A stretch of 64,000 nt of DNA from an uncultured virus (IMG/VR IMGVR_UViG_3300020049_007251) (lineage: Duplodnaviria > Heunggongvirae > Uroviricota > Caudoviricetes): IMG/VR virus record IMGVR_UViG_3300020049_007251; one strand, written 5' to 3'. This document shows positions 16,012 to 39,901 of the stretch, piece by piece (within the stretch, counting starts at the first letter, position 1; each line of letters begins with the position of its first letter). Both the position numbers and the translations under genes were made by a program. The notes under the pieces were generated by a model. It saw nothing but the letters and a program-made list of their open reading frames with translations. It was not told the origin of the DNA and ran no database searches.

Positions 16012-16041
16012 TTCTATAACCTCCTGTTTTGTTTTCGATTG

Positions 16042-17175: not shown

Positions 17176-17358
17176 TTACTTAGTTCCATAGTCTTTTGGT
17201 ACTCTTTCTACAATAGCTACAAACCCATTAGCTTCTTGATGAATTGAAACTTTATACCCTTCTTTTTCTAACTGCTCTTTATAAAATTCAGCTTTTTCTT
17301 TTGTAGGAAAGCTATGACCAATGCCATTCTTTCTTTCTAACAAATCATGTCTTCGCAT
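17176..17358 (-). CDS. Small hypothetical protein (MRRHDLL N-terminus)
   Basis: Coupled to flanking head genes; RBS AGGAG. Confidence 0.6.
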   Translation of the reverse strand: MRRHDLLERKNGIGHSFPTKEKAEFYKEQLEKEGYKVSIHQEANGFVAIVERVPKDYGTK

Positions 17359-19151: not shown

Positions 19152-19324
19152 TTTAACTGAGGTATGTACTCTTGTAATTGTTCAATGGTCTTAAAGGTTT
19201 TTTGATCTACTTCGTATCTATCGATTTTACCGTCTATAGTAACCTTGGTTACGGTCTTACCGTACATTACCCGTGACTCCCGATGCTCATCCTTCTTAGC
19301 AGCAAGCAACTCATGACGTCGCAT
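19148..19324 (-). CDS. Small hypothetical protein, 58 aa (MRRHELL N-terminus; not in ORF track)
   Basis: TAATG overlap with portal stop and ATGA overlap with gp7 start; MRRHELLAAKKDEHRESRVMYGK...QLK. Confidence 0.65.
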   Translation of the reverse strand: MRRHELLAAKKDEHRESRVMYGKTVTKVTIDGKIDRYEVDQKTFKTIEQLQEYIPQLK

Positions 19325-20733: not shown

Positions 20734-20735
20734 TT

Positions 20736-21278
20736 TTATTGAGCCTTCTGTATGAACCAAACCGAGGATTTATCCATAGCTTTGAAGTGCTCCCCAAAGC
20801 TTTCTTTTAACGCTCTTTGCACTCCGGGGTGAGCTTCGTCGTTGTCGTGTCCAGCCATGATTGCTCCCGGCATTAATAGTTCAAACCAATTAAAGTCTTC
20901 CATCACAGCTTCGTAGGTGTGATCCCCGTCGATGTAAATGAAATCAATGATCCCTGGAACAAAGATCTTTTGCGCTTCAACCGAGGTCATAAGCATCGGA
21001 CGAACCTTCTCGGTCAACCCCATGATGCTCATATTGCTTCGGAAAACCTCCAACACTGACCGTTCCTTCGCTTCGTTAACCATGTGAACTTCGTCCGGGG
21101 CACCTTGCCACGTGTCAACACAATACAAAAGATCAGAGTACCGAGCAATGATGCTGGAAGAAAGTCCCTTCCAAGAACCAATCTCAACGGCGCACTTGGG
21201 ACGTTTTTGCTCAACCAAAGCCTCGAGGGAAGCCATGTCGAACGAGGTCATTTGCGGATCGAAGATAATGTCACGCAT
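20736..21278 (-). CDS. Class I SAM-dependent methyltransferase (Methyltransf_24-like)
   Basis: VEIGSWKGLS, CVDTW, DFIYIDGDHTYEAV..D, GHD motifs. Confidence 0.85.
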   Translation of the reverse strand: MRDIIFDPQMTSFDMASLEALVEQKRPKCAVEIGSWKGLSSSIIARYSDLLYCVDTWQGAPDEVHMVNEAKERSVLEVFRSNMSIMGLTEKVRPMLMTSVEAQKIFVPGIIDFIYIDGDHTYEAVMEDFNWFELLMPGAIMAGHDNDEAHPGVQRALKESFGEHFKAMDKSSVWFIQKAQ

Positions 21279-21978
21279 TTGAAACCTCCTTACGAAGGGC
21301 GGCTAACAGCTTGTTGATTTCTTCATAGTTCGGACGCATGTCGAAAGGAACTTGGTTCTCCATAATGCGCTTAGAGATGTGGTCTTGCTCACGGGTTTGG
21401 TTGTGATGGCAATAATGTCGCAACGTAATGGGCAATTCAACAACCGAGTCAACTGCGTCGTAAAGGTTCTTACACCAAATGTCGGCACCCCAAGTTGGAA
21501 TGCGAGCAGGGAAAACTCCCCCCAAAGCTTCAACACCAGCACGTCCCTGGAGAGGGAAACAGCAATAGTTACCGTGACCTTTGGCTCTGAAGCCGTCAAT
21601 GCCGTCCTGGATCCAACCGTAAATAACATTGGGTTTGTCTTTGAGAACGTCGTAAGCAAGAACGTCCCAGTCAGGAGTTTCGAAAACACAGTCGTCATTT
21701 GCCGTAATAATCCAACGCCCTTTGGATTGGGATGCGAGGTAAGAGTAATAATCACGAGAGAAATTGAGGGAGCGTTCCACAACGTGCATATGAACGAAGG
21801 GTAACGGGTAGGTGTTTAGGTATTCCTGGGTAATGACATCGTCGGAATCAACGGCAATGAGAACTTCAATTTCTTTGGTGTTGCACGTGTTCTGGATGAG
21901 AGAACTGAGGAGTTGCTTGAGCAAAAAGATTCTTTCACGGGTGGGGAAAACAACGGAAAATTTGATTTGGTTGTCCAT
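21271..21978 (-). CDS. Glycosyltransferase family 2-like
   Basis: FSVVFPTRER, EVLIAVDSDD, ANDD, D.W motifs. Confidence 0.75.
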   Translation of the reverse strand: MDNQIKFSVVFPTRERIFLLKQLLSSLIQNTCNTKEIEVLIAVDSDDVITQEYLNTYPLPFVHMHVVERSLNFSRDYYSYLASQSKGRWIITANDDCVFETPDWDVLAYDVLKDKPNVIYGWIQDGIDGFRAKGHGNYCCFPLQGRAGVEALGGVFPARIPTWGADIWCKNLYDAVDSVVELPITLRHYCHHNQTREQDHISKRIMENQVPFDMRPNYEEINKLLAALRKEVSNA

Positions 21979-21980
21979 AG

Positions 21981-23183
21981 TTACATTACGTCGTAGATAC
22001 TGACGTTTCCTTTCATATACGGCTCGAGCGCATAACGAGCAGCGTCGCAAGCATGATTTGACTTATCCACAGGAATAGGTAAAACTTCATCTGTAATTCT
22101 GTCAACCTTCCAACGGTAATTTGAGAAATCACCCACGCTACCTGTACAACTTGGATGAACAATAATGGCTTCAAAGTTTTTAAGGAATTCGATTCCATCT
22201 TCTACGCTTCCTGGACCTTTCTCTGCACCGATGCAATTAAATCCTTGATTCGACATGTAAGAGATTGTGTCAGGACGGGAAGAATCCCCACGAATTGTAA
22301 ACTTACGAGAGTGTTCAACGCCATCAAAACAACGAGGCAAATCGTCAATCTCAATACCGTACCCGTAGAATTCCCGGTCAATGTATAATTTACGATCCCG
22401 AATAAACATACGAACCAAACAAGAAGGGTCAACACCAAAACCCCAATCTGCGCCAAACATGAACTGAGTGCCTTCGCCTGCTGGTTCGAATTCTTCAACC
22501 CGAAGTTTATTCTTAAAGATAACCGCTTGACCGTATTTCTTTGGTCGCCCTCCCCACACATGGTCGTATTTTTCAGGGTCGTTTTGCTTGCACCAGAGCA
22601 TTTCCCGCCGCAGCACTTCTGGGAACCATGGGTTGTCCCACCAGTTGACAAAGGCGCTGACAAGCCCTGGCTGAGAAACGGGCTTGCCGTCTTTTTCAAC
22701 GAATCTGGTGTAGGTGTCTGAGTTCTCATCTTCGGGGTTGAATGTCAGAATGATTTCTGACTTTGGCTTTCTGATTGTTGGTATTAGAGTATCCCAAGAG
22801 TCTTTTGATACCTTTTCAGCTTCTTCGACCCAGCAAATATCAACGCCTTCGGTTGACTTTATCTCGCTTATGTTTTGCCTAAGGCCTTTAAATAGGAATT
22901 CTGAACCAAATATCCCATAAATGCAGTCCCTTTGAATGTCGTAAACGTTTTGGAGCTTATGATGATATATTCGGTCGCAGAGCAAACGGTAAACTGAATC
23001 TCTTATTGAGCCTTGAATTTCTCTGGTACATAAAACCCGTCTTTTAGCATACGCGGTTCGAGTTAGCAGGTAATCCGCGACGGACCAGGACTTGGTTGAG
23101 CCTCTTCCGCCGTATAGTGCCTTGCGGTCGGCTTCTTCGTTATAGAGAACCTTTCTAACCTTGGGCGGTACTTGGATTATCAT
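21981..23183 (-). CDS. terL: Terminase large subunit (PBSX/SPP1 type)
   Basis: GGRGSTKS Walker A, WVEEAE Walker B, PTIR, FNP, GADWGF..DP, NH..DA.RYA. Confidence 0.95.
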   Translation of the reverse strand: MIIQVPPKVRKVLYNEEADRKALYGGRGSTKSWSVADYLLTRTAYAKRRVLCTREIQGSIRDSVYRLLCDRIYHHKLQNVYDIQRDCIYGIFGSEFLFKGLRQNISEIKSTEGVDICWVEEAEKVSKDSWDTLIPTIRKPKSEIILTFNPEDENSDTYTRFVEKDGKPVSQPGLVSAFVNWWDNPWFPEVLRREMLWCKQNDPEKYDHVWGGRPKKYGQAVIFKNKLRVEEFEPAGEGTQFMFGADWGFGVDPSCLVRMFIRDRKLYIDREFYGYGIEIDDLPRCFDGVEHSRKFTIRGDSSRPDTISYMSNQGFNCIGAEKGPGSVEDGIEFLKNFEAIIVHPSCTGSVGDFSNYRWKVDRITDEVLPIPVDKSNHACDAARYALEPYMKGNVSIYDVM

Positions 23184-23604
23184 TAGGCTTAGGAGCCTCT
23201 TCTCTATTAGGCTCTACCTCCTGGATCACAATTTGAGGCGGTACTAATGGCGCTCCATCTAATCCAGAAATTTCTTGTTTAGTAGGTACATTGCCAATTG
23301 ATCGCGCTAAGAGCCTATCAAAGTTATAAAGAGAACCGGATCTAATATCTGTTATCATTCCCCGTGCAATAGTGCGTTCAAGAGAAGGTACTTCGTTTGA
23401 TCGAGAAACTTTTTCTAATTCTGGAGTTGTAAGAGCTTGAAGTTTTTTAATTGTTTCAGCAATTACAAGGGCTGTAAATTTAATAAGTTCCGAATTAGGA
23501 ATTTTTCTTTTACCTTGACCTGGGTATCTATTACCCGGTTTAAATCGTGTAGCAGGTGAAGGATTTGGATTGCCTGGTTTTTTTCCGCTTAGTTTCCGTT
23601 TCAT
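23155..23604 (-). CDS. terS: Terminase small subunit
   Basis: RFKPGN N-terminus, EISG.DG.PL C-terminus; upstream of terL. Confidence 0.75.
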   Translation of the reverse strand: MKRKLSGKKPGNPNPSPATRFKPGNRYPGQGKRKIPNSELIKFTALVIAETIKKLQALTTPELEKVSRSNEVPSLERTIARGMITDIRSGSLYNFDRLLARSIGNVPTKQEISGLDGAPLVPPQIVIQEVEPNREEAPKPNDNPSTAQG

Positions 23605-23610
23605 GATTTA

Positions 23611-23619
23611 AGTATAACA
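23611..23619 (-). promoter_or_regulatory. Extended -10 promoter (TGnTATACT) 6 nt before the terS ATG
   Basis: Minus strand TGTTATACT-TAAATC-ATG; no SD. Confidence 0.45.
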
Positions 23620-23746
23620 AGAATGCGAAAAGAGTAAGAGAAATAGTTTCCCCGCAGTTGCTATGCTGGAAATGAATGCGCAAATGACTTTGGGCAAGGA
23701 TTAAAATAAAATGAGTTTTAATAATAATTATTCTCAATATTCTTAA

Positions 23747-23981
23747 TATAACTGCGTTTTGCTCAAAAAGGCTACTTAAAGCGTTGGTGCGTATAGCAAT
23801 TTGATACGATAGTTGCGCGAATAAGCCCTATCATGGCATAGTATTTTAGTTAATATCTTAATTAAAAATTAAAAATATGCTTATCAATCTAAGATAATAG
23901 TATAGCTAGTGTATGCTATCTGCGCAACTATAGGGCTTAAAGCTATATGTACCAATAGTTTACGACTAAAACGCAGTTATA
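23747..23981. repeat. Nested inverted-repeat array in divergent intergenic region
   Basis: TATAACTGCGTTTT 23747/23968 (14/14); TTGGTGCGTATAGC 23784/23942 (12/14); ATAGTTGCGC 23809/23922; TAAGCCCTAT 23822/23930. Confidence 0.85.
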
Positions 23982-24016
23982 ATCATACTATTTAGTATAA
24001 ACGTTAATAAAAAGTA

Positions 24017-24045
24017 TGTACAAAAGACTTTCTTCTCTATATAAT
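24017..24045 (+). promoter_or_regulatory. Sigma70-like early promoter
   Basis: TGTACA-17 nt-TATAAT upstream of HTH gene. Confidence 0.55.
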
Positions 24046-24069
24046 GTTTTTCAATGAAAGGAGAAACTA

Positions 24070-24306
24070 ATGTCAAATAAAATACCAAAAGAATTTGAAA
24101 AATTATTAGTAGAATGGAGAGCAACTTTAGGAATGTCTCAAGTTGAATTAGCGAATGAACTTAGAGTTTCACAGGTAACAATTTCTAAATGGGAAAACGG
24201 TAAATCAAGGGCAAGTAAAACCTTAGAATTCAGTGTATTAGAATGGGCATATGAAAAAGGGTTAATAGATAGCTCCCCTAGGGCTAACTGGAAGGAGGAG
24301 GAATGA
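24070..24306 (+). CDS. XRE/Cro-like HTH regulator
   Basis: R..LGMSQ.ELA..L.VS..TISKWENG. Confidence 0.9.
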   Translation: MSNKIPKEFEKLLVEWRATLGMSQVELANELRVSQVTISKWENGKSRASKTLEFSVLEWAYEKGLIDSSPRANWKEEE

Positions 24307-24473
24307 TGAATATTGTAGAGGCGCAGCTTGCAGTTAAGAAGGAAAGAGAGCGGCTTAAGAAGTTAAAGGCCTCAAAAGAACTTCTCTATCGACTGGAGAG
24401 AGTTGCTTCTGATCTGGGCACGGTCATAAACTGTATTAAAAGAGAAGGATTTGATCCTGAGGAAGGTGTATGA
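24303..24473 (+). CDS. Hypothetical protein, 56 aa (not in track)
   Basis: ATGA overlaps at both ends; RBS GGAGG. Confidence 0.55.
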   Translation: MMNIVEAQLAVKKERERLKKLKASKELLYRLERVASDLGTVINCIKREGFDPEEGV

Positions 24474-24895
24474 AAATTCTAATTGATACGCGCGAACAAA
24501 GGCCCCTTGAGTTTGCCTGGCCTTCGGCCAAGGCGTGTTTGCCGTTTGGGGATTATGGGTGTGAGCTTGACGATGAGAGCATGGTGCCGGTGATATTTGA
24601 GAGGAAATCGATTGCGGATTTGTTTGGGAGCCTTTCAAAGGGATATGAGCGGTTTCGGAATATGTTAAGAAAGGCGGAAGCAGATAAAGTTAAGATTATT
24701 ATTATAGTTGAAGGCAGCTTAAGCAAAGTGCTTAAAGGCTATTCAAGATCCCAAAGAACAGGAGTAAGCATTGTAAAGCAGCTTTACACAATTCGGGCGA
24801 TCTACGGCATTGAGATTGTTTTTTGCCAGAATAGGGATGAGATGACGCTATATATAGAGAAGCTCTTTGATTCTTATAGGAGGTTAAAAATATGA
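24470..24895 (+). CDS. ERCC4/XPF-family nuclease (resolvase-like)
   Basis: IDTREQ, GDY, ERKS..DL..S motifs. Confidence 0.85.
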   Translation: MKILIDTREQRPLEFAWPSAKACLPFGDYGCELDDESMVPVIFERKSIADLFGSLSKGYERFRNMLRKAEADKVKIIIIVEGSLSKVLKGYSRSQRTGVSIVKQLYTIRAIYGIEIVFCQNRDEMTLYIEKLFDSYRRLKI

Positions 24896-25062
24896 TTTAC
24901 ATTTTGTTTATAATTATTATCTCGAGCGGCGGGAACGTTACCGCGGTTCACACGCAGGAGTTTGTCGGCGGGACGGCCTGCGAGGCGGTGTCGACGCAGC
25001 TTAAGGACTACTTAAAGCGCAACGCTCCCGGGCAGCAGGCTGTTTTCTGCGTGCCTAAATGA
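24892..25062 (+). CDS. Small membrane/secreted Cys-pair protein, 56 aa (not in track)
   Basis: RBS GGAGG; MIYILFIIII... C...FCVPK. Confidence 0.5.
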   Translation: MIYILFIIIISSGGNVTAVHTQEFVGGTACEAVSTQLKDYLKRNAPGQQAVFCVPK

Positions 25063-25180
25063 AAATTGGAACTTTTTGGCCCCCTAAATTATTTTAAAAT
25101 AATACTGTTCTTTTCTGCAAAAGCATGATATATTTTAATTAACGAATGCGGAACGAAACAAACAACTAAAGGAGCTCGCA

Positions 25181-25315
25181 ATGAAACAAGTTAAAAGTTG
25201 GGTAATAACGTACGGAATTGGGCAACAAGCGTTTTTTTCAAACACAAATGATATGTGTGATTTTGTATGTAAAACAGCTTGCAGAATTATTGACATTGGT
25301 GTGGTTACTATATAA
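25181..25315 (+). CDS. Hypothetical 44 aa protein (not in track)
   Basis: RBS AAGGAG, MKQVKSWVITYG... Confidence 0.45.
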   Translation: MKQVKSWVITYGIGQQAFFSNTNDMCDFVCKTACRIIDIGVVTI

Positions 25316-25348
25316 AGAGAAACACCAACACAAAAGGCTCGCAAAGCA

Positions 25349-25591
25349 ATGGACCAGAATCAAGACAAAAATCAGATTAACAAAAGCCCTGCGGCTAAGG
25401 ACGCCTTCACTGGTGGGTTGCGAGCTACGGACAATCGGCACATGATCGCCGTCCCCGTCCGTTCCAAAGCCGCAGAGGCTTTCTCTATATTAAAAGCGTT
25501 TGGGAATGACCGTTATTGGATTAACGCAATGCTTAGTCTAGGCGATCTTCATAAACGGCATGCTTATGAGCTAAAAAGGAGACTTACATGA
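25349..25591 (+). CDS. Hypothetical protein
   Basis: Preceded by AAAGGCTCGCAA motif shared with neighbours. Confidence 0.45.
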   Translation: MDQNQDKNQINKSPAAKDAFTGGLRATDNRHMIAVPVRSKAAEAFSILKAFGNDRYWINAMLSLGDLHKRHAYELKRRLT

Positions 25592-25636
25592 AAAGCTTAT
25601 TGAAATTTATTTGTTCCCTGTTTCAACCAGACTCCG

Positions 25637-25972
25637 TTGAAGAGCAAGCCAAAGACAGAGAGATCCAATACGAAACCGAATGCTGGGGAGAAAAATAAAA
25701 TGGTATACCCTACAACAAATCCTGAACATATTCAAAACCGCATGGTAGAAGTTAATTTGTCCGAGTTCTTTTTTCACTACGAAAAAGAGAACCAAGCAAA
25801 TCTTTATCGTAGAACAAACATTCAACAAGTTGATATAACACGAGAAGAAAGAATTGAGGCGTTGGAAAAAGACGCTAGAGAGTTTGCGTTTCTTTACAGC
25901 TTAGAGGCGCAGCTTCATTTTTACCGTATCACTCCGAGAATGTTAGCGGAAGATTACATCAGTAGACAATAA
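25637..25972 (+). CDS. Hypothetical protein (true start probably the internal ATG, MVYPTT)
   Basis: GGAG before internal ATG; same-strand gene string. Confidence 0.5.
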   Translation: MKSKPKTERSNTKPNAGEKNKMVYPTTNPEHIQNRMVEVNLSEFFFHYEKENQANLYRRTNIQQVDITREERIEALEKDAREFAFLYSLEAQLHFYRITPRMLAEDYISRQ

Positions 25973-25995
25973 ACAAATAAACGAAAGGCTCGCAA

Positions 25996-26232
25996 ATGCC
26001 ACACACCGTGATCAAACCAAAACTTAAGAACGTTGTACTTGTTGCTTCACTTCCGAAATGCGACCTCTGCCATTTAGTTGGCGAAACGCACGAAGCTTGC
26101 TATGATGCCAAGCTTCCTTCCAGGGGTTACTGGGCTAACGTCTGCCGATCACATTTTGATCGGGAAGAATGCGAACTTGGAGTTGGAAAAGGACAATACC
26201 TCACCACAATCCCGGAGGTGAGCAATGTATAA
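25996..26232 (+). CDS. Small zinc-binding phage protein
   Basis: CDLC..YDAK...G.WANVC..H...LG.GKGQ. Confidence 0.65.
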   Translation: MPHTVIKPKLKNVVLVASLPKCDLCHLVGETHEACYDAKLPSRGYWANVCRSHFDREECELGVGKGQYLTTIPEVSNV

Positions 26233-26668
26233 ACCTGCCATAGTGACGTTAATAGCCGTGACGCTTAGTTCATGCACCTTGGCCTATGCTTCGGATACGC
26301 AAATCCCTGCGGATAGAGCCATTGCCGCGATAATCGGGGAAGTGTCGGGGGAAGGCGGGGCAAACCTGGAGCTAAAGTATCGGGCGATGCTGGCCTGCGC
26401 CCATGCGATACGCAATCGCGGGACTTTGAAAGGGGTATATGGGGAACATGCTCCCCACGTTAAGAAGGAGCCGGCTTGGGTGTGGAAGATGGCAAGAAGG
26501 GCTTGGGTGCAGTCGGCTTATGACAGGGCGTGCGGGAAGGATATAACCTGCGGGGCAACGCACTGGGAGAACGTTGATCGATTTGGAAAACCGTATTGGA
26601 TGAAGGATATGAAGGTAACCGTGACTATTGGGAGTCATGTCTATATGAAGAGAAAGGGGCGTGCGTAA
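26225..26668 (+). CDS. SleB/Hydrolase_2-like cell wall hydrolase with signal peptide
   Basis: IIGE..GE, A..I.NR, DIT.GATH, KPYW, TIG.H.Y; N-terminus ends TLAYA. Confidence 0.75.
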   Translation: MYKPAIVTLIAVTLSSCTLAYASDTQIPADRAIAAIIGEVSGEGGANLELKYRAMLACAHAIRNRGTLKGVYGEHAPHVKKEPAWVWKMARRAWVQSAYDRACGKDITCGATHWENVDRFGKPYWMKDMKVTVTIGSHVYMKRKGRA

Positions 26669-26859
26669 TGACTAAGAAAGCTAAGTATGGAAGTATAACG
26701 GCCTTAATGAAGGCTTTACTAAAGACGGAGGCAAAGAATAGCTATGAGAAAACGCTGAAAGAAGTTAAAAGTTTTTTCCCAGAAAGTAAATTCAACGAGC
26801 GGCATTTCTCGTGGTATAAGAGCGCATTTAAACGTGGGGCTTTGAAAGGGATAAGATGA
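26668..26859 (+). CDS. Small basic DNA-binding-like protein
   Basis: TAATG overlap start; HFSWYKSAFKRGALKG. Confidence 0.55.
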   Translation: MTKKAKYGSITALMKALLKTEAKNSYEKTLKEVKSFFPESKFNERHFSWYKSAFKRGALKGIR

Positions 26860-27254
26860 TGGAAAGACAAGAAAGTAAAATGATTAAAGGTAAGACTTGG
26901 GTCCCTGTGATTGGGCAAGATAGGTTAGGCCAAATGTATGAGGATCAATTAAAGTTTGCTAGGCAGTTTGGCTTGACGCCAAACATGCCGCCTGCGGAAG
27001 TAAATCGATGGCTTAAGGAGTTAAGCTTATGCGCGATTATGGAGAATGCGGAATTGATTGAGGAACTTAATTGGAAACACTGGAAGAAAACAACCAAACC
27101 GCTGGACCTTGAAGCTGCGCGCATGGAAGTTATTGATGACCTCAAGTTTCTTATGAGCAAGGCAATTGCGTTAAGTATGACGCCTGAGAACATATATCAG
27201 TACTTTTCCAGGAAAGGGGAGATTAATGAAGAACGACAAAAAAGCGGCTATTAA
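26856..27254 (+). CDS. Dimeric (all-alpha) dUTPase/dCTPase-like NTP pyrophosphatase
   Basis: E..EL.EELNWKHWK ... E.ID..KF, K..IN..RQ..GY. Confidence 0.8.
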   Translation: MMERQESKMIKGKTWVPVIGQDRLGQMYEDQLKFARQFGLTPNMPPAEVNRWLKELSLCAIMENAELIEELNWKHWKKTTKPLDLEAARMEVIDDLKFLMSKAIALSMTPENIYQYFSRKGEINEERQKSGY

Positions 27255-27396
27255 AGCCGAGCGCATGTCTAGCCAGTATAAGAAAGTGCTTGCTGATAAG
27301 CTTATGCAAGTGTTATATGAAGATGGATTAAGTAAAATACAAATGCGCAGAGTATTTAGCTATGCGTACCAAAGCCTAAGGGGGAAATCAAGATGA
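27226..27396 (+). CDS. Hypothetical 56 aa protein (not in track)
   Basis: RBS GGGGAG; ATGA overlap with next gene. Confidence 0.45.
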   Translation: MKNDKKAAIKAERMSSQYKKVLADKLMQVLYEDGLSKIQMRRVFSYAYQSLRGKSR

Positions 27397-27713
27397 GTAT
27401 GGTAGAAAGAGATAATAGTCTTAAAGACTTTTTTATTGAATGTCTTGCAATTCTAGAAAAAAAAGGTGCGGATTATAATCCAGAAGGCGTGCCGTTTTCT
27501 GAAATAAAAGCAACTGCAGCTAAGCTTGGCATTAAGCCTGAGCAAGTGCTGACAGTGTACATGGATAAGCATTGGAATGCAATTATGAGCCATGCAAAAA
27601 AGGGACAGCTGGAGTCTGAGCCTATACGTGAAAGGCTTAAAGATTTGGCTAATTACTGCGCTTTGTATGCAGTTATGATAGGTGAAGGAACCAACATGAC
27701 GGAGGCTTCATGA
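27393..27713 (+). CDS. Nucleotide-modification-associated domain protein (DUF1599/MazG-like)
   Basis: L.KKG.DY ... K ... E....R..D.ANY. Confidence 0.65.
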   Translation: MSMVERDNSLKDFFIECLAILEKKGADYNPEGVPFSEIKATAAKLGIKPEQVLTVYMDKHWNAIMSHAKKGQLESEPIRERLKDLANYCALYAVMIGEGTNMTEAS

Positions 27714-28510
27714 ATTACATGGACTTAGTGTTTCGAGTGTTAGTAGATGGGATTGAAGAACCCAATCAAAGAACTGGGCTTAAAACCCGAAGGCTTCTTA
27801 ATCAAACGGTTGAGTTGAAGTCCAATCAGCTATTTTCTACCAGAAAGATCCTGCCTCGGATTGCTGCGGCCGAAGTGGCCTGGATGCTGTCTGGGACTAG
27901 AAGTACAGAGTGGCTGTCTAAGCATACTAAAATCTGGCAGAAGTTTGAGGATCGGCCTGGGTTTATTAACACGGCTTATGGGTATAGGTGGGTACATGAG
28001 TTTGGAAGAAATCAAATAGAGGAGGCTATTGGGCTTCTTAAAAAAGATCCGTCCACGCGCCAGGCCCTCGTGATTTCATGGAATCCGGGGACTGATGGGT
28101 TAATGAGTCAAGGGTTTGATAAAAATGTGCCGTGCCCGTTTGCCTTCAACCTCTATATTGTTGCAGGGAAAGGATTTATTTCAGTTTATCAGCGGTCGGC
28201 TGATGTTATTATTGGAATTCCGTATGACTTGATGACCTACTATTTGTTAGGCCAGGCTATATTTAACTCGGTGGGTATTAAGTTTGGCGGTGTAGGGATT
28301 ATGATTGGGGATGCGCATATTTATGAGAATTGCTATCAGGTTGCTAATACAATGATCGATAATATTGTGCCGCATTTTCAACATTATCTTGACCACGAAT
28401 GGACGGTGGCGGAAATTCTGGAGAAACCGGATACTTTTGTTGGGATTTGTTCAGGCTGGTATGAAACGGTTAAGTTTCCAGTAAATGATAGATTGGAGGC
28501 TGCGGCATGA
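27710..28510 (+). CDS. Thymidylate synthase-superfamily enzyme, probably dCMP (hydroxy)methylase
   Basis: RTG, E..W..SG, YG.RW, TRQA, VPC, YQRSAD...G.PYD, GDAHIY; Asp replaces the ThyA Asn. Confidence 0.8.
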   Translation: MNYMDLVFRVLVDGIEEPNQRTGLKTRRLLNQTVELKSNQLFSTRKILPRIAAAEVAWMLSGTRSTEWLSKHTKIWQKFEDRPGFINTAYGYRWVHEFGRNQIEEAIGLLKKDPSTRQALVISWNPGTDGLMSQGFDKNVPCPFAFNLYIVAGKGFISVYQRSADVIIGIPYDLMTYYLLGQAIFNSVGIKFGGVGIMIGDAHIYENCYQVANTMIDNIVPHFQHYLDHEWTVAEILEKPDTFVGICSGWYETVKFPVNDRLEAAA

Positions 28511-28704
28511 TTAAGTTAAAACTTAAAAATGTTTCAAGAGATATAAACGGAAATCTATGTGCTGAAGCAGTAACAAGCATTGAAGGTAAAGAAATTGCAA
28601 AAGCCGGTCAATGTCAATGGGAAGGGCAAATTGTAATAGAAAAAGGAATGGAAAAATATTTTATATTTAAAGAACCTAAGGAAAAACCTTATGACAAAGC
28701 ATGA
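28507..28704 (+). CDS. Hypothetical protein
   Basis: Overlapping neighbours in operon. Confidence 0.45.
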   Translation: MIKLKLKNVSRDINGNLCAEAVTSIEGKEIAKAGQCQWEGQIVIEKGMEKYFIFKEPKEKPYDKA

Positions 28705-29128
28705 ATATCTCTGCGCTATAGCCGACGTTGTAAAGTCTAAGTCGGATTGCTTCAAGCGGAAAGTGGGGGCCGTGTTTGTAAATACCGACTACGAGATCCT
28801 GGCAACTGGTTATAACGCTCCGCCAAGGGGATTTAACCATTGTGATGCTAAAACCGGCTCTATGGGGTATCAACCAGGGACTTGTGGCTCTCCTTGCACA
28901 AGAAATATACATGCTGAGATTAATGCAATTTGTCAGGCCGCTAAACGCGGGACTGCTCTTAGAGACTCAATTCTTTATTGCAGCTATGCGCCGTGTGTAG
29001 ATTGTGCCAGGGCTTTGATTAACGTCGGAGTAAAAGAAGTTAGGGTTAAGGAATTAAATATTGACGGTGGATGGAATGTACTTCAGCATGCCGAAATTCC
29101 AGTAACTCTTTGGGGAGAAACTGTATGA
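28691..29128 (+). CDS. dCMP deaminase family
   Basis: S.C..RKVGAV, TGYN..P, HAEINAI, PCVDC. Confidence 0.9.
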   Translation: MTKHEYLCAIADVVKSKSDCFKRKVGAVFVNTDYEILATGYNAPPRGFNHCDAKTGSMGYQPGTCGSPCTRNIHAEINAICQAAKRGTALRDSILYCSYAPCVDCARALINVGVKEVRVKELNIDGGWNVLQHAEIPVTLWGETV

Positions 29129-29376
29129 AAGCCGTTGACCTTATGACTGTCTTAATGGATTGGCATAAAGCAGATTTTACTCATAAAGAATTTCAGTTTA
29201 TTGTGGAGTGCGCAGGAATTCTGGCAAAAGAAAAAACTCTTACTCCCGCGCAGCATCAGTGGTTGCAGTCGATATATGATAAAGTTGTGGCTTTCCGTTT
29301 TGGGCTTGAAGGAATGTCAACTGATCGGGAATATGCAGCTAAAAGAGCAATACTTAAGAAAAAAAGTCGCGGGTAA
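29125..29376 (+). CDS. Hypothetical protein
   Basis: ATGA overlap, RBS GGAG. Confidence 0.5.
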   Translation: MKAVDLMTVLMDWHKADFTHKEFQFIVECAGILAKEKTLTPAQHQWLQSIYDKVVAFRFGLEGMSTDREYAAKRAILKKKSRG

Positions 29377-30108
29377 AATAGTTTAATTACTGGTATACAA
29401 CTTACAAATACAAGTCTAATATACATTTATTCAATTAAATCTAGTGCGGATTAATAAATGATCCGGCTGGACGAAGTCAGCCAGAAATGGTACGGGTCGC
29501 ACGCCCAGACTTCTCCAGACCGGATCGACAAAGGGCGTGCGAGATGCTTCACTATTGTTATACCTGCAGAGAAAAATCTATTACACAAAGGCTCTACACT
29601 CGAAAAAGTGATGGGGCTAAATGTGTCTTCACGCGCTGCCTGAATAAAAATCCCAAATGTTTGTTTAAAGAGTTTAAAGTTATAGAAAAGGGGAAAGGCC
29701 ATGCCATTGTTTCTGAAGAGAAAAAAGCCGATAAAAAAGATTGCAGAGTTTATTCCAGAAATCAAACCCAGCTTGAGCTTTTCAAGCAATCTTGATTTTT
29801 CACTATTATACAAGTTTCAAAAAGAATGGGCAAGCGCAGACAATTGGTCTTTACAGTATACAGTAATTAGAAAATGGTGGCCAACAGTTTGTGATATAAA
29901 AATTCCCGAGGTTGACGCCGAGTTATTGCAGACCCGCATAGGGTACGAGCTGCAAGCTAGCGCTTATATAGAGGCAAGAATTCCAATGCCAAAATCAGTT
30001 CTTCAAAACTTGCAAGCAATCAGAGAATTTAGAGTTGATAGAATGACTCAAAGAATGAGCAAGTTTATGGGGATTATAATGGAAAGTAAAAAACAAGGAG
30101 AAGTGAAA

Positions 30109-30462
30109 ATGGGAAACAAAAAAGTGAAAGCAAACAAAAAAGAAGTGCGACAAGGCGTAAGTGCATTTTATCTTGAAATCTTTGCAGGGCAAGCTGTGTC
30201 AGCGTTAACTGATGAGCAGATTGCTAAAGCAATTGAGGGAAAAACTGGGTCGTTGCCGACGCTTAAGAACGTGGCATCTTACCGCTGCATGTACAATGCC
30301 GGTAAGCTTCAAGGCCAGAAAAATGTGCCAAGTGGCAAGGTTAAGGCAGTGCGTGCAAAAAGTGATCGTCCGGCTAAGCCCAAGGTTACGATGAGCGAAG
30401 AGACTAAGGCAAAGCTTAAGGCTTACAGTGCCAAGAAAAAGGCGTCTAAAAATAAAAAGTAA
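30109..30462 (+). CDS. Basic DNA-binding-like protein with Lys-rich tail
   Basis: RBS AAGGAG before ATG 30109; LTDEQIA...VASYR..YN.GKL. Confidence 0.6.
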   Translation: MGNKKVKANKKEVRQGVSAFYLEIFAGQAVSALTDEQIAKAIEGKTGSLPTLKNVASYRCMYNAGKLQGQKNVPSGKVKAVRAKSDRPAKPKVTMSEETKAKLKAYSAKKKASKNKK

Positions 30463-30467
30463 AATAA

Positions 30468-30623
30468 GCAGGGTTGTGGCGGGATGAACCCGCAAAATAT
30501 AGGCAGATTAAGCGAACTGCCGGAGAATGCAAAAAGTCACATAAAGCAGTAGGTCGTAGGATACCGAACCTATACTTGAGCATCACCAAAATCGCCAGCA
30601 GGTAAAAATCCTGTCAACCCTGT
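30468..30623 (+). ncRNA. tRNA-like structured element (acceptor-like stem plus T-arm, expanded interior)
   Basis: GCAGGGTTG pairs with CAACCCTGT; adjacent GCAGG-TAAAAAT-CCTGT; internal hairpins GCGGG/CCCGC and GGCAG/CTGCC. Confidence 0.55.
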
Positions 30624-30642
30624 AAATTTCTGGAGAAAAAAA

Positions 30643-31719
30643 ATGTCTGATTTAATTAAATGTCCAAGTTGCGGTGAAGAGTTTGAGCTTGACAAGGCCA
30701 TGGCTAAAAAAATGGAGGCGGGTGTTGAAAAAGAACTGGCCAAAAGATTAGCTGTTGAAAAAAATAAAATCCTTAAGGAGGCTAACGAAAGCGTTATTTC
30801 TCTTCAGGAAAAGCTTGACAAAGCTAATGCTAACGAATTGTCATTGCGTAAGCAAAAGACCGAACTTGAGCAAAAAGCCAAGGACATAGACCTAGAGGTT
30901 CAACGTAAGCTCGAACAAGAGAAGGCAAGCATAGAGGCCAGAGTTTCTGCCAGAATAGTTGAGGATCATCGCGCTAAAGATTCTGAGAAAGACAAAAAGT
31001 TAGCAGACACACTGGCACAAGTTGAGGAACTTAAAAGACGCATGGAGCAAGGCTCTCAACAGGCCCAAGGCGAAACGTTTGAGGCTGAGCTTGAGGAAAT
31101 GCTTAGGATTCAGTTTCCTTTTGACGTGATTGACCCTGTATCCCCTGGAATCAAAGGTGGGGATATTTTGCATATTTTTAAGAATAAGGCCGGCACAGAA
31201 TGCGGAAGAATGCTTTGGGAAATAAAGAGGACTAAAGCTTGGTCAGACGGCTGGATTACTAAGATCAAAGCCGATGCTCGAAATGCTAAAGCCGACGTTT
31301 GTTTGATTGCAACTGAGACCCTTCCTAAAGGTTTAGAGGAATTTGGTGAAGTGGAAAGTGTCTGGGTTTCTTCTCCAGGAAATTGTATTCCTTTGGCTCA
31401 TGCTATTCGTCAAGGCCTTATGCGAGCGGCTAAAGAAAAGTATTTACAGGCTGGAAAGAAAGACAAGGCAGTTTTAGTTTACGAATATATGACTGGTCTT
31501 GAGTTTAAAGGAAGGATTGAAGGGATTGTTGAATCGTATAGAACTATGAAGGCTGATTTAGACTCTGAAAGAAGAGCTATGGAGAAAGTCTGGGCAAAGC
31601 GCGAAAAACAAATTTCTATGGTAACGTTTAATCTAGCTAGTATGCATGGCGAAATTGAAGCAATAGCAGCAGGCGAATTACCGGCAATAGCAGCATTACA
31701 AATTGGAGAAGCCAAATGA
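30643..31719 (+). CDS. DUF2130-like protein (Zn ribbon, coiled coil, nuclease-like domain)
   Basis: IKCPSC, SQQ.QGE..E..LE..L...FP.D, WE.KRTK.WS..W. Confidence 0.8.
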   Translation: MSDLIKCPSCGEEFELDKAMAKKMEAGVEKELAKRLAVEKNKILKEANESVISLQEKLDKANANELSLRKQKTELEQKAKDIDLEVQRKLEQEKASIEARVSARIVEDHRAKDSEKDKKLADTLAQVEELKRRMEQGSQQAQGETFEAELEEMLRIQFPFDVIDPVSPGIKGGDILHIFKNKAGTECGRMLWEIKRTKAWSDGWITKIKADARNAKADVCLIATETLPKGLEEFGEVESVWVSSPGNCIPLAHAIRQGLMRAAKEKYLQAGKKDKAVLVYEYMTGLEFKGRIEGIVESYRTMKADLDSERRAMEKVWAKREKQISMVTFNLASMHGEIEAIAAGELPAIAALQIGEAK

Positions 31720-31898
31720 GCAAAAGCAAATGGAATAAAGAAGTTTCTGAGAAATATGATATGCCTTTAATTTGCATAAATTGCAAAACATTAAGAAATC
31801 GTTTTATGAAAAAAACAAATCTTTGTATAGTTTGTGCAAATAAGCTTTCTCGTAAAGGGCAGGCTAAAAAAGCCGCCGCACAAAAGGCTTTGAAATGA
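31716..31898 (+). CDS. Small zinc-finger protein
   Basis: CINC...CIVC; ATGA overlaps. Confidence 0.5.
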   Translation: MSKSKWNKEVSEKYDMPLICINCKTLRNRFMKKTNLCIVCANKLSRKGQAKKAAAQKALK

Positions 31899-32875
31899 GC
31901 AAGACTTTTTACGAGATGGAACGCGATGGCGTGACGCAAAGCCTTATTTCTATGTGGCTGTCTTGCCGTCAAAAGGCCCGATTTTACCTCCAGGGATGGG
32001 AAAGTAGGTATGCTAAAGAAGCGTTAGTTGACGGGAACGTTGGCCATGCGGTTTTAGAGTATGCCTATTTGGACGTAAAAGCCGGAAAACTTACCTCCCC
32101 TCCGTCTGAAAAAAGTATTAGAAAGTACACTGATATAGTTGAGAAGATGTGGAATCAAGAGCATGTGCGGCTTGATACAAAAGCTAGGGTAATGGTGGAC
32201 AAGGCCTTGGCAGTCATGGAAGTTGTGCTTCCGCTTTACTTTGACTATTGGAGAGACGACTTTACTAAAAAGAAATGGCTTTCTCTGGAAGAGAAGTGGG
32301 TTATGTGGTTACCGATAGTCGGGGCAGATGGTAAAAAAGTTAGCATTCCGCTAAGAGGAAAAAAAGACGGAACTTTTCAAGGGACAAAAGGGACATGGCT
32401 TTTTGAAACTAAATTTAAAGCTATGATCGATGAAGGAGGAATATCGGAAACTTTAAGCTTTGAAACTCAAGTTATGCTTTATCTTTTAGAAACTTGGGGA
32501 GGCACCTCAAGTCCAGTGCCTAGAGGCTGTCTTTATAATGTTATTAGACGAACAGCCCTAAGAATGAATACCAGTGAAACAGTAGTTCAATATGCCAAGC
32601 GCGTAAAGAAAGACGTTGAGAAGCGGCCAGAGTTTTACTTCATGCGCATGGAAAGCCCAACATCTGAGAAAGAGTTGTTGGCCTTCAAAGCCGAGTTAAC
32701 CTCTCTTCTTCAGGATATGTGGAATTGGTGGAAAGGCTTGGCTCCGCACTATAAAAATACTTATGAGTGTATTGGCAAATACGGCAAGTGCTTGTATCTG
32801 CCCGTGTGTGGAAGAGATGAGTTTAATTCTTTGGCAAAAAGAAAAGTAGTCTTCAAAGAACTTGAGGACCTATAA
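31895..32875 (+). CDS. PD-(D/E)XK exonuclease (RecB/Cas4-like fold)
   Basis: QS....CRQK, G..GH..LE, RGKKD..ETK, Q..LY, C-terminal C..C..C. Confidence 0.8.
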   Translation: MSKTFYEMERDGVTQSLISMWLSCRQKARFYLQGWESRYAKEALVDGNVGHAVLEYAYLDVKAGKLTSPPSEKSIRKYTDIVEKMWNQEHVRLDTKARVMVDKALAVMEVVLPLYFDYWRDDFTKKKWLSLEEKWVMWLPIVGADGKKVSIPLRGKKDGTFQGTKGTWLFETKFKAMIDEGGISETLSFETQVMLYLLETWGGTSSPVPRGCLYNVIRRTALRMNTSETVVQYAKRVKKDVEKRPEFYFMRMESPTSEKELLAFKAELTSLLQDMWNWWKGLAPHYKNTYECIGKYGKCLYLPVCGRDEFNSLAKRKVVFKELEDL

Positions 32876-32886
32876 AGGAGAAGCAA

Positions 32887-33735
32887 ATGGCTATTAAAAT
32901 ACTAAAAGGCAATAAAAAAAGCAGTAAAAGAATTGAAAAAGCTGAAGAGCCAATTGGTAAGCTTAGCTTGCCAAAGCATAAGTCTGAGAGATCGGATGAG
33001 GTTCAAGACTATTCGATTTTGATGTACGGTAAAAAGAAAATAGGTAAAACTTCTTTTACGGCTCAGTTTGAGGGGATGTTAGGAATGATGTGTGAGCCGG
33101 GTGGAAAAGCTCAGGAAATGTATCAGGTACCTTGTCGCAATTGGAAGGAGCTGCGCGAGTACACAAGATTATTTATTAAAGACGATCGCTTTAAAACTGC
33201 CTCTATTGATACTGCAGATTATGCTTATGAGTTTTGCATGGAGTATATCTGCAAAAAGATGGTTATTGACCACCCTTCAGATGAAGGTTATGGTAAAGGC
33301 TGGAAAGCGGTGCGGGCTGAGTTTCAGGCATGGGTAACTGAGCTGCTTCACTCTGGAAAAGGAATTATATTCATAAGCCATAGCAAGGACGAGGAGTTTA
33401 AAACAAGAAAAGGAGACACTTTTAATAAGGTAGGGGCTTCAATGGCAGGGCAAGCCAAAGATATTCTTGAAGGCTTGGTAGACATTTGGGCAAACTACGA
33501 GTACGATGGGAAGAGACGATACTTAATCATAGGCGGCTCAGACGAAGTTGATGCAGGTAATCGGGTAGAGGGACATTTTCTTGATACGGATGGTACACCT
33601 CTTGACCGAATACCAATGGGGAATAATCCTCGTGAAGCATATAGGAACTTTGTTGCCGCTTTTAATAATAAACTGCAAATCGCTCGTGAAGAGGCGGTTG
33701 CTCAACCAAAAAAACTTGTTATTAAACGCAAGTAA
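32887..33735 (+). CDS. AAA ATPase (Sak4-like recombination protein)
   Basis: YGKKKIGKTS, IDT, YGKGW, FISH. Confidence 0.85.
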   Translation: MAIKILKGNKKSSKRIEKAEEPIGKLSLPKHKSERSDEVQDYSILMYGKKKIGKTSFTAQFEGMLGMMCEPGGKAQEMYQVPCRNWKELREYTRLFIKDDRFKTASIDTADYAYEFCMEYICKKMVIDHPSDEGYGKGWKAVRAEFQAWVTELLHSGKGIIFISHSKDEEFKTRKGDTFNKVGASMAGQAKDILEGLVDIWANYEYDGKRRYLIIGGSDEVDAGNRVEGHFLDTDGTPLDRIPMGNNPREAYRNFVAAFNNKLQIAREEAVAQPKKLVIKRK

Positions 33736-33750
33736 AAAAAGGAGAATCAA

Positions 33751-34644
33751 ATGGGTATTGATGCAAAAATGAAAGCAAAGTTGGCAAAGTTTAACAAAAA
33801 CTTCTCAAAGGAAAAAAAGCGCGCAGATGAACTTGGCGGATTTGCCGAAATTCCTGACGGCAAATACTTGGCTAAAGTTGCTAGCTGCGAAATCAAAAAC
33901 TCAAACGCAGGCGAAATGCACTTAGTATTTATTTTTGAGATTACTGAGAGCGCCGAAGATGAAAGCCTTGTTGGCGCCAAAGCCAGCAAATGGTGCAACG
34001 TTGAAAAAGAAGATGGTCCAGCATATTTGATCCGTGACCTTCGCAAGTTTGGGATTGACTTGGACGATTTGGAACAGCTTCCAGAAGTTGCTAAATTGAT
34101 TGACGATCAAAAACCAGAAGTCAAGATTAGTTTAAAAACCGGAAACAGTGGACAGTTTACGTATCTTGATACGGTTATTTCTGAAATTGATGCTGGCGAA
34201 AATGCCTTGAGTGATGATGAAGAAAGCGAAGATGATGACGAAGATGACGATGAAGAAGAATCGGAATCTGAAGAATCAGAAGACGAAGAAGAATCAGAAG
34301 AAGAGTCTGAGGAGGAGTCTGAAGAAGAAGATGACGTTCAGCTTGACGTTGGGATAACTGTTGAGTTTACCTCAAAGAAAGGCGAAAAAGTGTCTGGAGA
34401 AATAACTGCCATTGATGAAAAAAAAGGCACAGTTGATGTTAAAGCAGGGAAAACAAACTTCAAAGGAATCGCTGTTGACCGTCTATCTATCCCCAAGGTA
34501 GAGGATCAAGAAGACGAATCCGAGGAAGAAGAGGAAGAAGAAGAAAAACCATCAAAAGCAAAAAAAGTAACACCAACGAAAGGAAAAGCCGTGGCTAAAG
34601 CAACCAAAAAAGCACCAGCTAAGAAAACAGCAAAGAAGAAGTAA
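33751..34644 (+). CDS. ssDNA-binding-like protein (DUF669-like) with acidic tracts and basic tail
   Basis: F..IPDGKY...V; follows AAA gene; Asp/Glu runs. Confidence 0.65.
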   Translation: MGIDAKMKAKLAKFNKNFSKEKKRADELGGFAEIPDGKYLAKVASCEIKNSNAGEMHLVFIFEITESAEDESLVGAKASKWCNVEKEDGPAYLIRDLRKFGIDLDDLEQLPEVAKLIDDQKPEVKISLKTGNSGQFTYLDTVISEIDAGENALSDDEESEDDDEDDDEEESESEESEDEEESEEESEEESEEEDDVQLDVGITVEFTSKKGEKVSGEITAIDEKKGTVDVKAGKTNFKGIAVDRLSIPKVEDQEDESEEEEEEEEKPSKAKKVTPTKGKAVAKATKKAPAKKTAKKK

Positions 34645-34707
34645 AAAGCACAGGCAGGGGCGCGACTGCACATCAACGCGCATTCTAAAATCCCAAAGGA
34701 AAAATCA

Positions 34708-38804: not shown

Positions 38805-39094
38805 CGGTTGAAAGAAGTTTAACGCACAACGGAGAAACCTGGTCTGTGTCAGAATGGGCTAGGAAAACTGGGTTAAAAAATAAAACTATTTATATGCGCC
38901 TTAATGCCGGATGGTCTGTTAAGGATACTTTAGAAAAGCCTATTCAAAGACAACTTTTTGCCAGAGAGCAAAGTAGAATAGCAAAGCGGGTAAGTGATAA
39001 AGACCGCGATAAAGAAAGATTATTAGTAAAACAACAGTCTAAGATGTGGCCTAATTGGAAAGAAGAAAGAGACCAAGAAGGCGACATACTTTAA
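38801..39094 (+). CDS. Stand-alone HTH of the type found on HNH endonucleases
   Basis: NGET..V.EWA..TG....TI..RL..GWS. Confidence 0.6.
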   Translation: MTVERSLTHNGETWSVSEWARKTGLKNKTIYMRLNAGWSVKDTLEKPIQRQLFAREQSRIAKRVSDKDRDKERLLVKQQSKMWPNWKEERDQEGDIL

Positions 39095-39112
39095 ACAATA
39101 AGGAGAAAAATA

Positions 39113-39870: not shown

Positions 39871-39901
39871 ACAATTTTAACGCTCGATAACAACGGGGGG
39901 A

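Follow-up and report, generated by a model that had tools for sequence, protein, structure and literature searches.

A putative dCMP-methylating ThyA homologue of the Xp12 type in an uncultured contractile-tailed phage

A stretch of 64,000 nucleotides from an uncultured virus of the Caudoviricetes (IMG/VR record IMGVR_UViG_3300020049_007251; the whole stretch is called the window below) carries a homologue of thymidylate synthase (TS) in the open reading frame (ORF) at 27710..28510, within a cluster of overlapping genes at 26856..29128. The encoded protein probably methylates deoxycytidine monophosphate (dCMP), and the locus is a new, divergent lineage of an already described cytosine-modification cassette, assembled with variant parts. 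The reading that we favour, with somewhat less assurance, is that of an enzyme of the kind found in phage Xp12, making 5-methyl-dCMP for DNA with 5-methylcytosine (5mC) and leaving thymidine nucleotides to be obtained by deamination of 5-methyl-deoxycytidine nucleotides; the chance that the phage DNA contains substantial 5mC is put at a little better than even. An earlier note on this DNA, made from its letters alone, had proposed a cytosine-modification cluster here, an interpretation which is not new, because cassettes of this type have been described for cytosine-modified phages.

The genes belong to phage A, which encodes tail sheath and baseplate proteins and is contractile-tailed. Window positions 1..45643 were the reverse complement of positions 114..45756 of a second record, G001, at 99.98% identity. 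Phage A itself corresponded to a record of 43,278 bp (G002, CheckV 94%), which ends at window position 39570 and reaches 3.7 kb beyond the window start.

The ThyA homologue and its specificity residue

The following features of the gene were located, the last two by alignment:

27710..28510, plus strand: ThyA-family enzyme of 266 amino acids (aa), PF00303, predicted deoxycytidylate C5-methyltransferase (5-methyl-dCMP synthase) of the Xp12 type
28121..28138, plus strand: codons for K138-N139-V140-P141-C142-P143 (E. coli ThyA 142-147), including the catalytic Cys142
28226..28228, plus strand: codon GAC of Asp173, the counterpart of E. coli ThyA Asn177 at the pyrimidine-specificity position

In a Pfam search the product of 27710..28510 matched PF00303 (Thymidylat_synt) with 137 bits (curated cut-off 24.3; E 8.5e-40), and 124 distinct solved ThyA-family sequences were matched by HMMER at E<=0.001. 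Residues 160-177 of the protein read YQRSADVIIGIPYDLMTY. Five of the HMMER alignments with ThyA chains of solved structure were inspected, and each set 'ipydl' of the window protein over 'vpfni', placing Asp173 on Asn177; both residues shared a column in MAFFT alignments which included E. coli ThyA (from NC_000913). The Asp that the earlier note had read at the nucleotide-specificity position was thus borne out, as was its observation of TRQA in the place of SRR; TRQA begins at residue 116, with R126 retained and R127 replaced by Gln (E. coli numbering). Asp173 is not a chance substitution, since it was invariant in all 19 members of its own clade and since the same column held Asp in 26 and Asn in 94 of the 120 best database homologues.

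The fold and the catalytic Cys146 are those of E. coli ThyA, and the nucleotide-binding residues R21, R126, R166, S167, D169, H207 and Y209 were all present, with E58, W80 and Y94 likewise kept. K138, N139, V140, C142 and P143 were invariant in the 19 clade members. The window protein differs from E. coli ThyA by N177D, H147P, L143N and R127Q, and by a five-residue insertion ahead of the catalytic loop. The score fell below every NCBIfam thymidylate-synthase equivalog cut-off (TIGR03284, 91.7 against 108.35; NF002497, 111.6 against 327), and the canonical residues Asn177, His147 and Leu143 were absent, their places being taken by Asp, Pro and Asn. Within the portion of G001 that is phage A, no further PF00303 match was found at E<=0.001.

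References taken from annotated records (T4 gp42, RB69 gp48, M6 gp58 and the TS homologues of Xp12, PaMx74, Mallos, phiH2, Achromobacter phage 83-24, RcRudolph and RDJL Phi 2) were aligned with the window protein and its homologues. In E. coli numbering, which is used from here on, the window protein reads K142-N143-V144-P145-C146-P147, S167, D169, G173 and Y176-D177. The same signature was common to Xp12, PaMx74, Mallos, phiH2, Achromobacter 83-24 and RcRudolph, and RDJL Phi 2 had Ile at 144. Canonical ThyA has A-L-P-P-C-H at 142-147 and F-N at 176-177; the corresponding residues were S-D-F-M-C-T and N-D in T4 gp42 and K-D-L-P-C-N and A-N in M6 gp58, and RB69 gp48 had L-E-Y-P-C-T at 142-147 together with D169N. 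Asp177 and Pro147 were found in all 24 nearest homologues and Asn143 in 23 of them. A C-terminal tail of TS length, running as far as E. coli position 264 in the alignment, is found in the window protein as well as in the Xp12-like enzymes and is absent from T4 gp42 and RB69 gp48. The BLASTP identity of the window protein was 35% with the TS homologue of Xp12 (E 1e-49) and 21% with T4 gp42 (E 2e-8).

The window protein therefore bears the Xp12-type combination of Asp177, K-N-V-P-C-P and D169. The acidic residue 143 that goes with Asp177 in T4-type hydroxymethylases was not found, Asn139 occupying this position, nor was the D169N of RB69 gp48, as Asp165 (equivalent to D169) is retained and was invariant in the 19 members of the clade. 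Asn177 combined with an acidic residue 143, the mark of a dUMP (deoxyuridine monophosphate) hydroxymethylase as represented by M6 gp58 alone, was also absent; M6 gp58 is an enzyme which we take to act on dUMP.

Two trees were calculated by quick IQ-TREE searches with SH-aLRT support and no bootstrap. In the first (44 rows, the 206-aa fragment P0016 being left out) the window protein fell inside a clade of 19 uncultured rows (SH-aLRT 98), and this clade joined with that of the Xp12-like enzymes and with two more sequences to make up a clade of 29 rows (SH-aLRT 95). T4 gp42, RB69 gp48, M6 gp58 and canonical ThyA lay outside it; the first three are on very long branches, so their exclusion can be read from the tree and their exact place cannot. 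A tree with ThyA, T4 gp42 and dUMP hydroxymethylases had been put forward in the earlier note as a check, and in the tree obtained here the window protein joined the Xp12-like clade to the exclusion of ThyA, T4 gp42 and M6 gp58. In the second tree (49 rows) the long-branch references were omitted and 16 of 28 sequences from metagenome-assembled genomes were added. A single Asp177 clade (support 100) was recovered, with cellular (99) and phage (90) sides, and the phage side contained the Xp12-like clade (94) and the clade of the window protein (99).

These residues have a published meaning. Mutagenesis has shown that N177D shifts the preference from dUMP to dCMP (PMC8670742; PMC13326640), and positions 147 and 177 best discriminated cytosine-modified from unmodified metavirome contigs (PMC8670742). 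At position 143, bulky hydrophobic residues go with methyl products and acidic residues with hydroxymethyl products, and D169N marks flavin-dependent 5-hydroxy-dCMP synthases, for example RB69 gp48 and DLP3 gp80 (PMC13326640). 5-Methyl-deoxycytidine (5mdC) was made in E. coli by the Xp12 TS and by five of seven Asp177 homologues tested (bioRxiv 10.1101/2024.12.05.627091). Signature and phylogeny, together with the gene order described below, support the dCMP-specific ThyA homologue predicted by the earlier note. That note had left the product as either 5-methyl- or 5-hydroxymethyl-dCMP; the methyl product appears the more probable and the hydroxymethyl product is disfavoured, because residue 143 is not acidic, D169 is kept, the tail is of TS length and the protein stands apart from T4 gp42.

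The surrounding cassette

Six plus-strand ORFs, each overlapping its neighbour, occupy 26856-29128. The genes around the methylase, and the polymerase gene 5.6 kb downstream of the cassette, are as follows:

26856..27254, plus strand: all-alpha nucleoside triphosphate (NTP) pyrophosphohydrolase of the dimeric dUTPase family (132 aa, PF08761), candidate dCTPase/dUTPase
27226..27396, plus strand: 56-aa ORF overlapping both neighbours, without a Pfam or PHROG match
27393..27713, plus strand: four-helix protein (106 aa), distantly DUF1599/Nmad1-like, possibly with a MazG-like NTP-pyrophosphatase fold
28507..28704, plus strand: 65-aa ORF between the methylase and deaminase genes, overlapping both, without a family match
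28691..29128, plus strand: zinc deaminase of the dCMP deaminase family (145 aa, PF00383) with HAE and PCxxC motifs
34708..36609, plus strand: family A DNA polymerase (PolA) with 3'-5' exonuclease (PF00476 E 2.2e-67; PF01612 E 1.9e-11)

Three of the neighbours named in the earlier note, a dimeric dUTPase/dCTPase-like enzyme, a dCMP deaminase and a downstream PolA, were confirmed by profile searches. The hydrolase matched PF08761 (dUTPase_2) with 50.5 bits (E 3.7e-13) and the PHROG dUTPase / NTP pyrophosphohydrolase, as well as the solved dimeric dUTPases 1w2y, 2cje and 1ogk (E 4e-6 to 3e-5); T4 gp56, a dCTPase/dUTPase, also matches PF08761 (25.5 bits). A PRA-PH domain (PF01503) was found in the gene upstream of TS in the six Xp12-like phages scanned, which included Xp12, PaMx74, RcRudolph and RDJL Phi 2, and in 83-24 the PRA-PH gene lies two genes upstream of TS. 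PRA-PH is a member of the same all-alpha NTP-pyrophosphatase superfamily as the dUTPase_2 hydrolase.

The deaminase matched PF00383 (dCMP_cyt_deam_1) with 77.2 bits (cut-off 25; E 1e-21) and PF14437 (E 1e-14). Its best solved relatives were ordinary dCMP deaminases (2hvv, E 3e-18; 4p9c, 1vq2 and 7fh4), it was 26% identical to the deaminase of Xp12, and in a tree of 15 rows it stood separate from the Xp12-like deaminases. The pairing of methylase and deaminase has thus seemingly been assembled more than once, because this deaminase is of a non-Xp12 lineage. In the same tree M6 gp65 (L015 23724-24185, 'putative dCMP deaminase') grouped with the Xp12-like deaminases; the TS of M6 has Asn177. In tblastn searches with the window deaminase, 20 of 43 viral loci encoding relatives of the TS homologue had a deaminase in the flanking DNA retrieved.

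The fourth neighbour in the earlier note, a nucleotide-modification-associated domain at 27393..27713, is supported only indirectly, as no profile match appeared. The 106-aa protein had no Pfam match at E<=0.1, the PF07659 model found nothing in G001 at E<=10, and none of its 17 homologues has a precomputed Pfam domain. In the ESM Atlas the protein lay beside viral clusters with PF07659/DUF1599 on 10-43% of their members (cosine 0.95, TM 0.86-0.91), one of which is automatically named 'Nucleotide modification associated domain 1'. Its AlphaFold model is a four-helix bundle (pLDDT 88). Foldseek returned nothing for this model from the PDB at E<=0.001, and VIA-align gave 2p06_B (AF_0060) as the top match (Z 9.0), followed at Z 5.5-6.1 by PRA-PH 1yvw, RS21-C6 2oie/2a3q, the AF1178 pyrophosphatase 4qgp and MazG 2yxh/3cra, amid many unrelated helical proteins; for a modelled helical bundle of 106 aa, Z scores of 5.5-9 may be caused by a common arrangement alone. 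A profile of the family gave weak matches (E 4e-4 to 0.045) directly upstream of TS in four other loci (L023, L009, L021 and L027), including phage Mallos, and showed a weak alignment to the C-terminal portion of Xp12-type hydrolases (E 0.00097, probability 22%). As a lead, the 106-aa protein is probably a small nucleotide-binding or nucleotide-hydrolysing partner of the methylase. Kinship with JWAP_00037 of 83-24 and with the window's own dUTPase-like protein was also considered, and hhalign found no likeness in either case.

The arrangement recurs in a 48-kb relative (L020), in the order hydrolase, 56-aa ORF (46% identity, same position), Nmad1-like gene, TS and deaminase, followed by the same recombination genes. 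The 65-aa ORF was not found in L020. At its place between TS and deaminase, L020 has an ORF of 217 aa (6935-7588) with a DPPW motif which by eye is N6-adenine methyltransferase-like.

For PolA, identity reached at most 27.8% among the 15 best of 4720 matching phage records, and coverage was widest with phiVC8-like Vibrio phages. ThyX, DHFR (PF00186) and the thymidylate-kinase family were absent from the 43,278-bp phage record at E<=1, and P-loop motifs in the phage were restricted to a Sak4-like protein, a primase-helicase and one other ORF. A promoter scan of 23500-30800 yielded 17 candidates, which is no improvement on the mean of 14.8 after shuffling, and neither promoters nor terminators marked a clear operon boundary.

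The order NTP pyrophosphohydrolase, TS, deaminase is also that of Xp12, PaMx74, Mallos, phiH2, 83-24, RcRudolph and RDJL Phi 2. In Xp12 (MT664984) the cassette comprises:

QNN97215: PRA-PH/HAD hydrolase
QNN97214: TS homologue
QNN97213: dCMP deaminase
QNN97212: DHFR-like protein

With Xp12 and PaMx74 the window locus shares the ThyA fold, Asp177, K-N-V-P-C-P, D169 and the C-terminal tail, as well as the gene order, an own PolA and a single TS. It differs in that the TS homologue, 35% identical to that of Xp12, lies in a distinct, well-supported clade; in its carrier, a myovirus of ~43 kb as opposed to a siphovirus-type genome of ~60 kb; in having a dUTPase_2 hydrolase and a free-standing small Nmad1-like protein where Xp12 and PaMx74 have a PRA-PH fusion; and in a cassette with no DHFR, a deaminase of another lineage and Gln for R127. 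Achromobacter phage 83-24 likewise has no DHFR in its cassette as annotated. By its description, the metavirome association of a TS with Asp177, an in-cis deaminase, PRA-PH and PolA agrees with the window locus in domain neighbourhood and in the diagnostic positions 147 and 177 (bioRxiv 10.1101/2024.12.05.627091; PMC8670742).

T4 resembles the window locus in the Asp at the 177 position of gp42, in the dUTPase_2 family of its gp56 hydrolase and in a genome-encoded dCMP deaminase (Cd). It differs in that gp42, only 21% identical to the window protein, has Asp143, Thr147 and no C-terminal tail, and in that the T4 genes are dispersed and include a dNMP kinase and a separate Td. RB69 gp48 and DLP3 gp80 possess the ThyA fold and Asp177, as does the window protein, with D169N and Glu143 in contrast to its D169 and Asn143 (PMC13326640).

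Proposed pathway and competing explanations

In the pathway that we favour, replacement of Asn177 by Asp would let a folate-dependent enzyme of the ThyA fold bind dCMP instead of dUMP, and the enzyme would transfer and reduce a one-carbon unit to give 5-methyl-dCMP. The six tightly overlapping ORFs at 26856..29128 probably form one early operon. The upstream all-alpha hydrolases would convert dCTP (and dUTP) to monophosphates, by which the methylase would be fed with dCMP and unmodified deoxycytidine would be kept from the replication pool. Phosphorylation of 5-methyl-dCMP to the triphosphate would fall to host kinases, the phage PolA would incorporate 5-methyl-dCTP, and the adjacent dCMP-family deaminase would turn part of the 5-methyl-deoxycytidine nucleotide pool into thymidine nucleotides, so that a second thymidylate synthase would not be needed. 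In the preprint a conversion of 5mdCTP to dTTP was proposed as the role of the deaminase; PRA-PH and PolA were common neighbours, and many in-cis deaminases favoured 5mC, a preference that is polyphyletic (bioRxiv 10.1101/2024.12.05.627091).

Relatives of the enzyme also occur in cells. When the clade alignment was run against prokaryote genomes, one for each species, 28 loci (L063-L090) were obtained, most of them in Patescibacteria assemblies, with two in Gammaproteobacteria and one in Ktedonobacterales, and all 28 had K-N-V-P-C-P, D169 and Asp177. In each of five cellular genomes searched in full (G003-G007) the Asp177 gene was the sole PF00303 match over the cut-off, and ThyX was not found in these five. 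In all four of the Patescibacteria genomes a single PF00383 deaminase lay head-to-head with the Asp177 gene. Named by eye, ORFs at four Patescibacteria loci (L092-L095) begin like DHFR, serine hydroxymethyltransferase, thymidylate kinase and trimeric dUTPase. A PF00303 match was present in 82 of 151 sampled Patescibacteria genomes; 49 of these scored >290 bits, 15 scored 150-228 and 18 scored <76. The middle class (about one in ten of the sampled genomes) is the one into whose score range the verified Asp177 gene in G003 falls, G003 being the one member of this class in which position 177 was checked.

The 18 genomes of the lowest class (G008, G023, G053, G058 and others) had only a low match of 30-76 bits, to the C-terminal half of the PF00303 profile. 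These matches mostly lay within open frames of ~470-600 aa, as in a TS-like fusion or paralogue.

The cellular Asp177 loci suggest a dCMP-first route to deoxythymidine monophosphate (dTMP), which could run from dCMP through 5-methyl-dCMP to dTMP or take place at the triphosphate level. A literature search yielded no description of such a route in cells, and in the one Patescibacteria paper found to mention thyA, the passages on the gene treat it as canonical. We tentatively entertain, as a doubtful extension, that the methylase-deaminase pair is a dUMP-independent thymidylate pathway of cells and phages, of which phage A would be a viral branch with 5mC DNA as a side use.

A narrower form of this idea is that phage A only bypasses dUMP, with 5-methyl-dCMP deaminated completely to dTMP and canonical bases in the virion; the phage would then gain thymidylate made without dUMP and dUTP, or independently of the host ThyA. 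The deaminase is fixed beside the methylase, each of the four Patescibacteria genomes tested has, as its one PF00303 match over the cut-off, an Asp177 enzyme with this signature, adjoined by the sole PF00383 deaminase, the upstream hydrolase is dUTPase-like, and the phage lacks a dNMP kinase to drive 5-methyl-dCMP to the triphosphate, all of which speak for a bypass. However, the window TS lies on the phage (Xp12-like) side of the tree and not on the cellular side. In the preprint, moreover, 104 of the 149 dCMP-deaminase genes on cytosine-modified contigs stood within 3 kb of a TS gene, compared with 17 of the 277 on unmodified contigs, the deaminase mSCD-B5 acted on 5mdCTP and not on 5mdCMP, and the DNA of the cultured carriers Xp12 and PaMx74 had C wholly replaced by 5mC (bioRxiv 10.1101/2024.12.05.627091). 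A bypass without modified DNA is therefore considered unlikely.

Hydroxymethylation has to be weighed against two further genes of phage A:

20736..21278, minus strand: Methyltransf_24 SAM-methyltransferase (E 3.7e-16)
21271..22050, minus strand: GT2 glycosyltransferase (E 1.2e-6)

Were the enzyme a dCMP hydroxymethylase, the DNA would contain 5-hydroxymethylcytosine, possibly decorated, for example by the GT2 enzyme. The presence of these two genes, the Asp177 in common with T4 gp42, a polar Asn at 143 in place of a bulky hydrophobic residue, and the lack of DHFR, which fits a reaction without folate oxidation, are consistent with this, yet the acidic residue which T4 gp42 (D), RB69 (E) and M6 (D) have at 143 is missing, the protein carries exactly the signature of the Xp12 methylase and a C-terminal tail, and T4 gp42 lies apart in the tree and in identity. 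The two genes, moreover, lie between the large terminase and portal genes and are 87% and 66% conserved in a related phage of G001 whose TS-like protein and PolA have diverged (26% and 25% identical to those of phage A), which suggests a structural or surface role for them. Their target may be a virion protein, the host surface or DNA. A hydroxymethylase thus appears improbable. A flavin-dependent 5-hydroxy-dCMP synthase like RB69 gp48 could draw on the same Asp177 and nearby glycosyltransferase gene, but D169N is absent, the Asp at this position is invariant in the clade and the protein did not group with RB69 gp48, which makes this extremely unlikely. An ordinary TS, tolerating Asp177 and using dUMP from the neighbouring dCMP deaminase, would conform to the canonical pathway, in which deaminase precedes TS; PDB and Pfam matches class the protein among thymidylate synthases, and the cellular Asp177 homologues must finally deliver dTMP. 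This alternative is scarcely probable in the face of the published N177D mutagenesis (PMC8670742; PMC13326640), the 5mdC reported for the Xp12 enzyme with the same signature (bioRxiv 10.1101/2024.12.05.627091), a score below every equivalog cut-off and the additional replacement of H147 and L143.

Several observations weigh against synthesis of 5-methyl-dCMP for 5mC DNA. Residue 143 is Asn rather than the bulky hydrophobic residue of the published rule, although the Xp12 enzyme, which is reportedly active, has the same Asn. Two of the seven Asp177 homologues tested made no 5mdC (bioRxiv 10.1101/2024.12.05.627091). In the phage record no DHFR gene was found, where most Xp12-like relatives have one adjoining the deaminase gene, and no gene of the thymidylate-kinase family or for a dNMP kinase. 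The deaminase resembles ordinary dCMP deaminases and is not of the Xp12 lineage, so that its preference for 5-methylated nucleotides is something we infer. The hydrolase is of the dUTPase family rather than PRA-PH and so may simply be a dUTPase. Since Asp177 enzymes are the sole PF00303 match in some cellular genomes, they can serve plain thymidylate synthesis, and a fully modified DNA is not implied. The product, the substrate preference and the DNA base are all predictions from sequence.

If the favoured pathway is correct, a widespread group of uncultured contractile-tailed phages of ~45 kb packages 5-methylcytosine DNA, with altered sensitivity to restriction, CRISPR and methylation-dependent nucleases and with effects on the behaviour of phage DNA in sequencing and cloning. 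Since the kind of system has already been described, the gain lies in a new lineage in which the set of parts varies, and which offers candidate tool enzymes, namely a dCMP methylase of divergent sequence, a deaminase with a possible preference for 5mC, and small hydrolases of nucleotides. Of greater importance could be the cellular homologues, which hint that the steps of thymidylate synthesis may be taken in another order.

Carrier phage and neighbouring phage units

From position 39571 the window continues into a second phage-like unit, in which G+C rises to as much as 0.48 and which contains:

42476: O-like replication protein
43635: RusA
44761..46254: second large terminase

In G001, where the junctions of phage A lie at 6187 and 49464, phage A is followed in tandem by the related phage, their structural genes having 74-83% DNA identity. 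At the boundaries of phage A, att-like and terminal repeats were looked for, and the only matches were 9-11 bases long. The tandem units of the window and of G001 may be genuine, as prophages lying in tandem, or may have arisen in assembly or binning.

The related phage has a cassette of its own (L002 319-2187; G001:59556-61424), which encodes a TS-like protein of 235 aa, an ORF of 259 aa and a ComEB-like dCMP deaminase, the last 36% identical to the deaminase of phage A. The 235-aa protein lies on a very long branch and has Asp177, Arg143, Ser147 and no C-terminal tail; the 259-aa ORF showed no Pfam or NCBIfam match and no likeness to the TS profile. This cassette may serve a different cytosine modification.

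Downstream of the Sak4-like gene of phage A, an ORF of 297 aa (33751..34644) without a PHROG match contains a long Glu/Asp/Ser run and a Lys/Ala-rich C-terminus. Among public sequencing runs, small word shares (0.18 and 0.06) came from assembled contigs of wastewater metagenomes, from which no habitat is deduced. The nearest cultured phages by terminase were Bdellovibrio and Nitratiruptor phages (48-49%); the relatives of the portal protein were uncultured, and the single named one was binned as Dependentiae.

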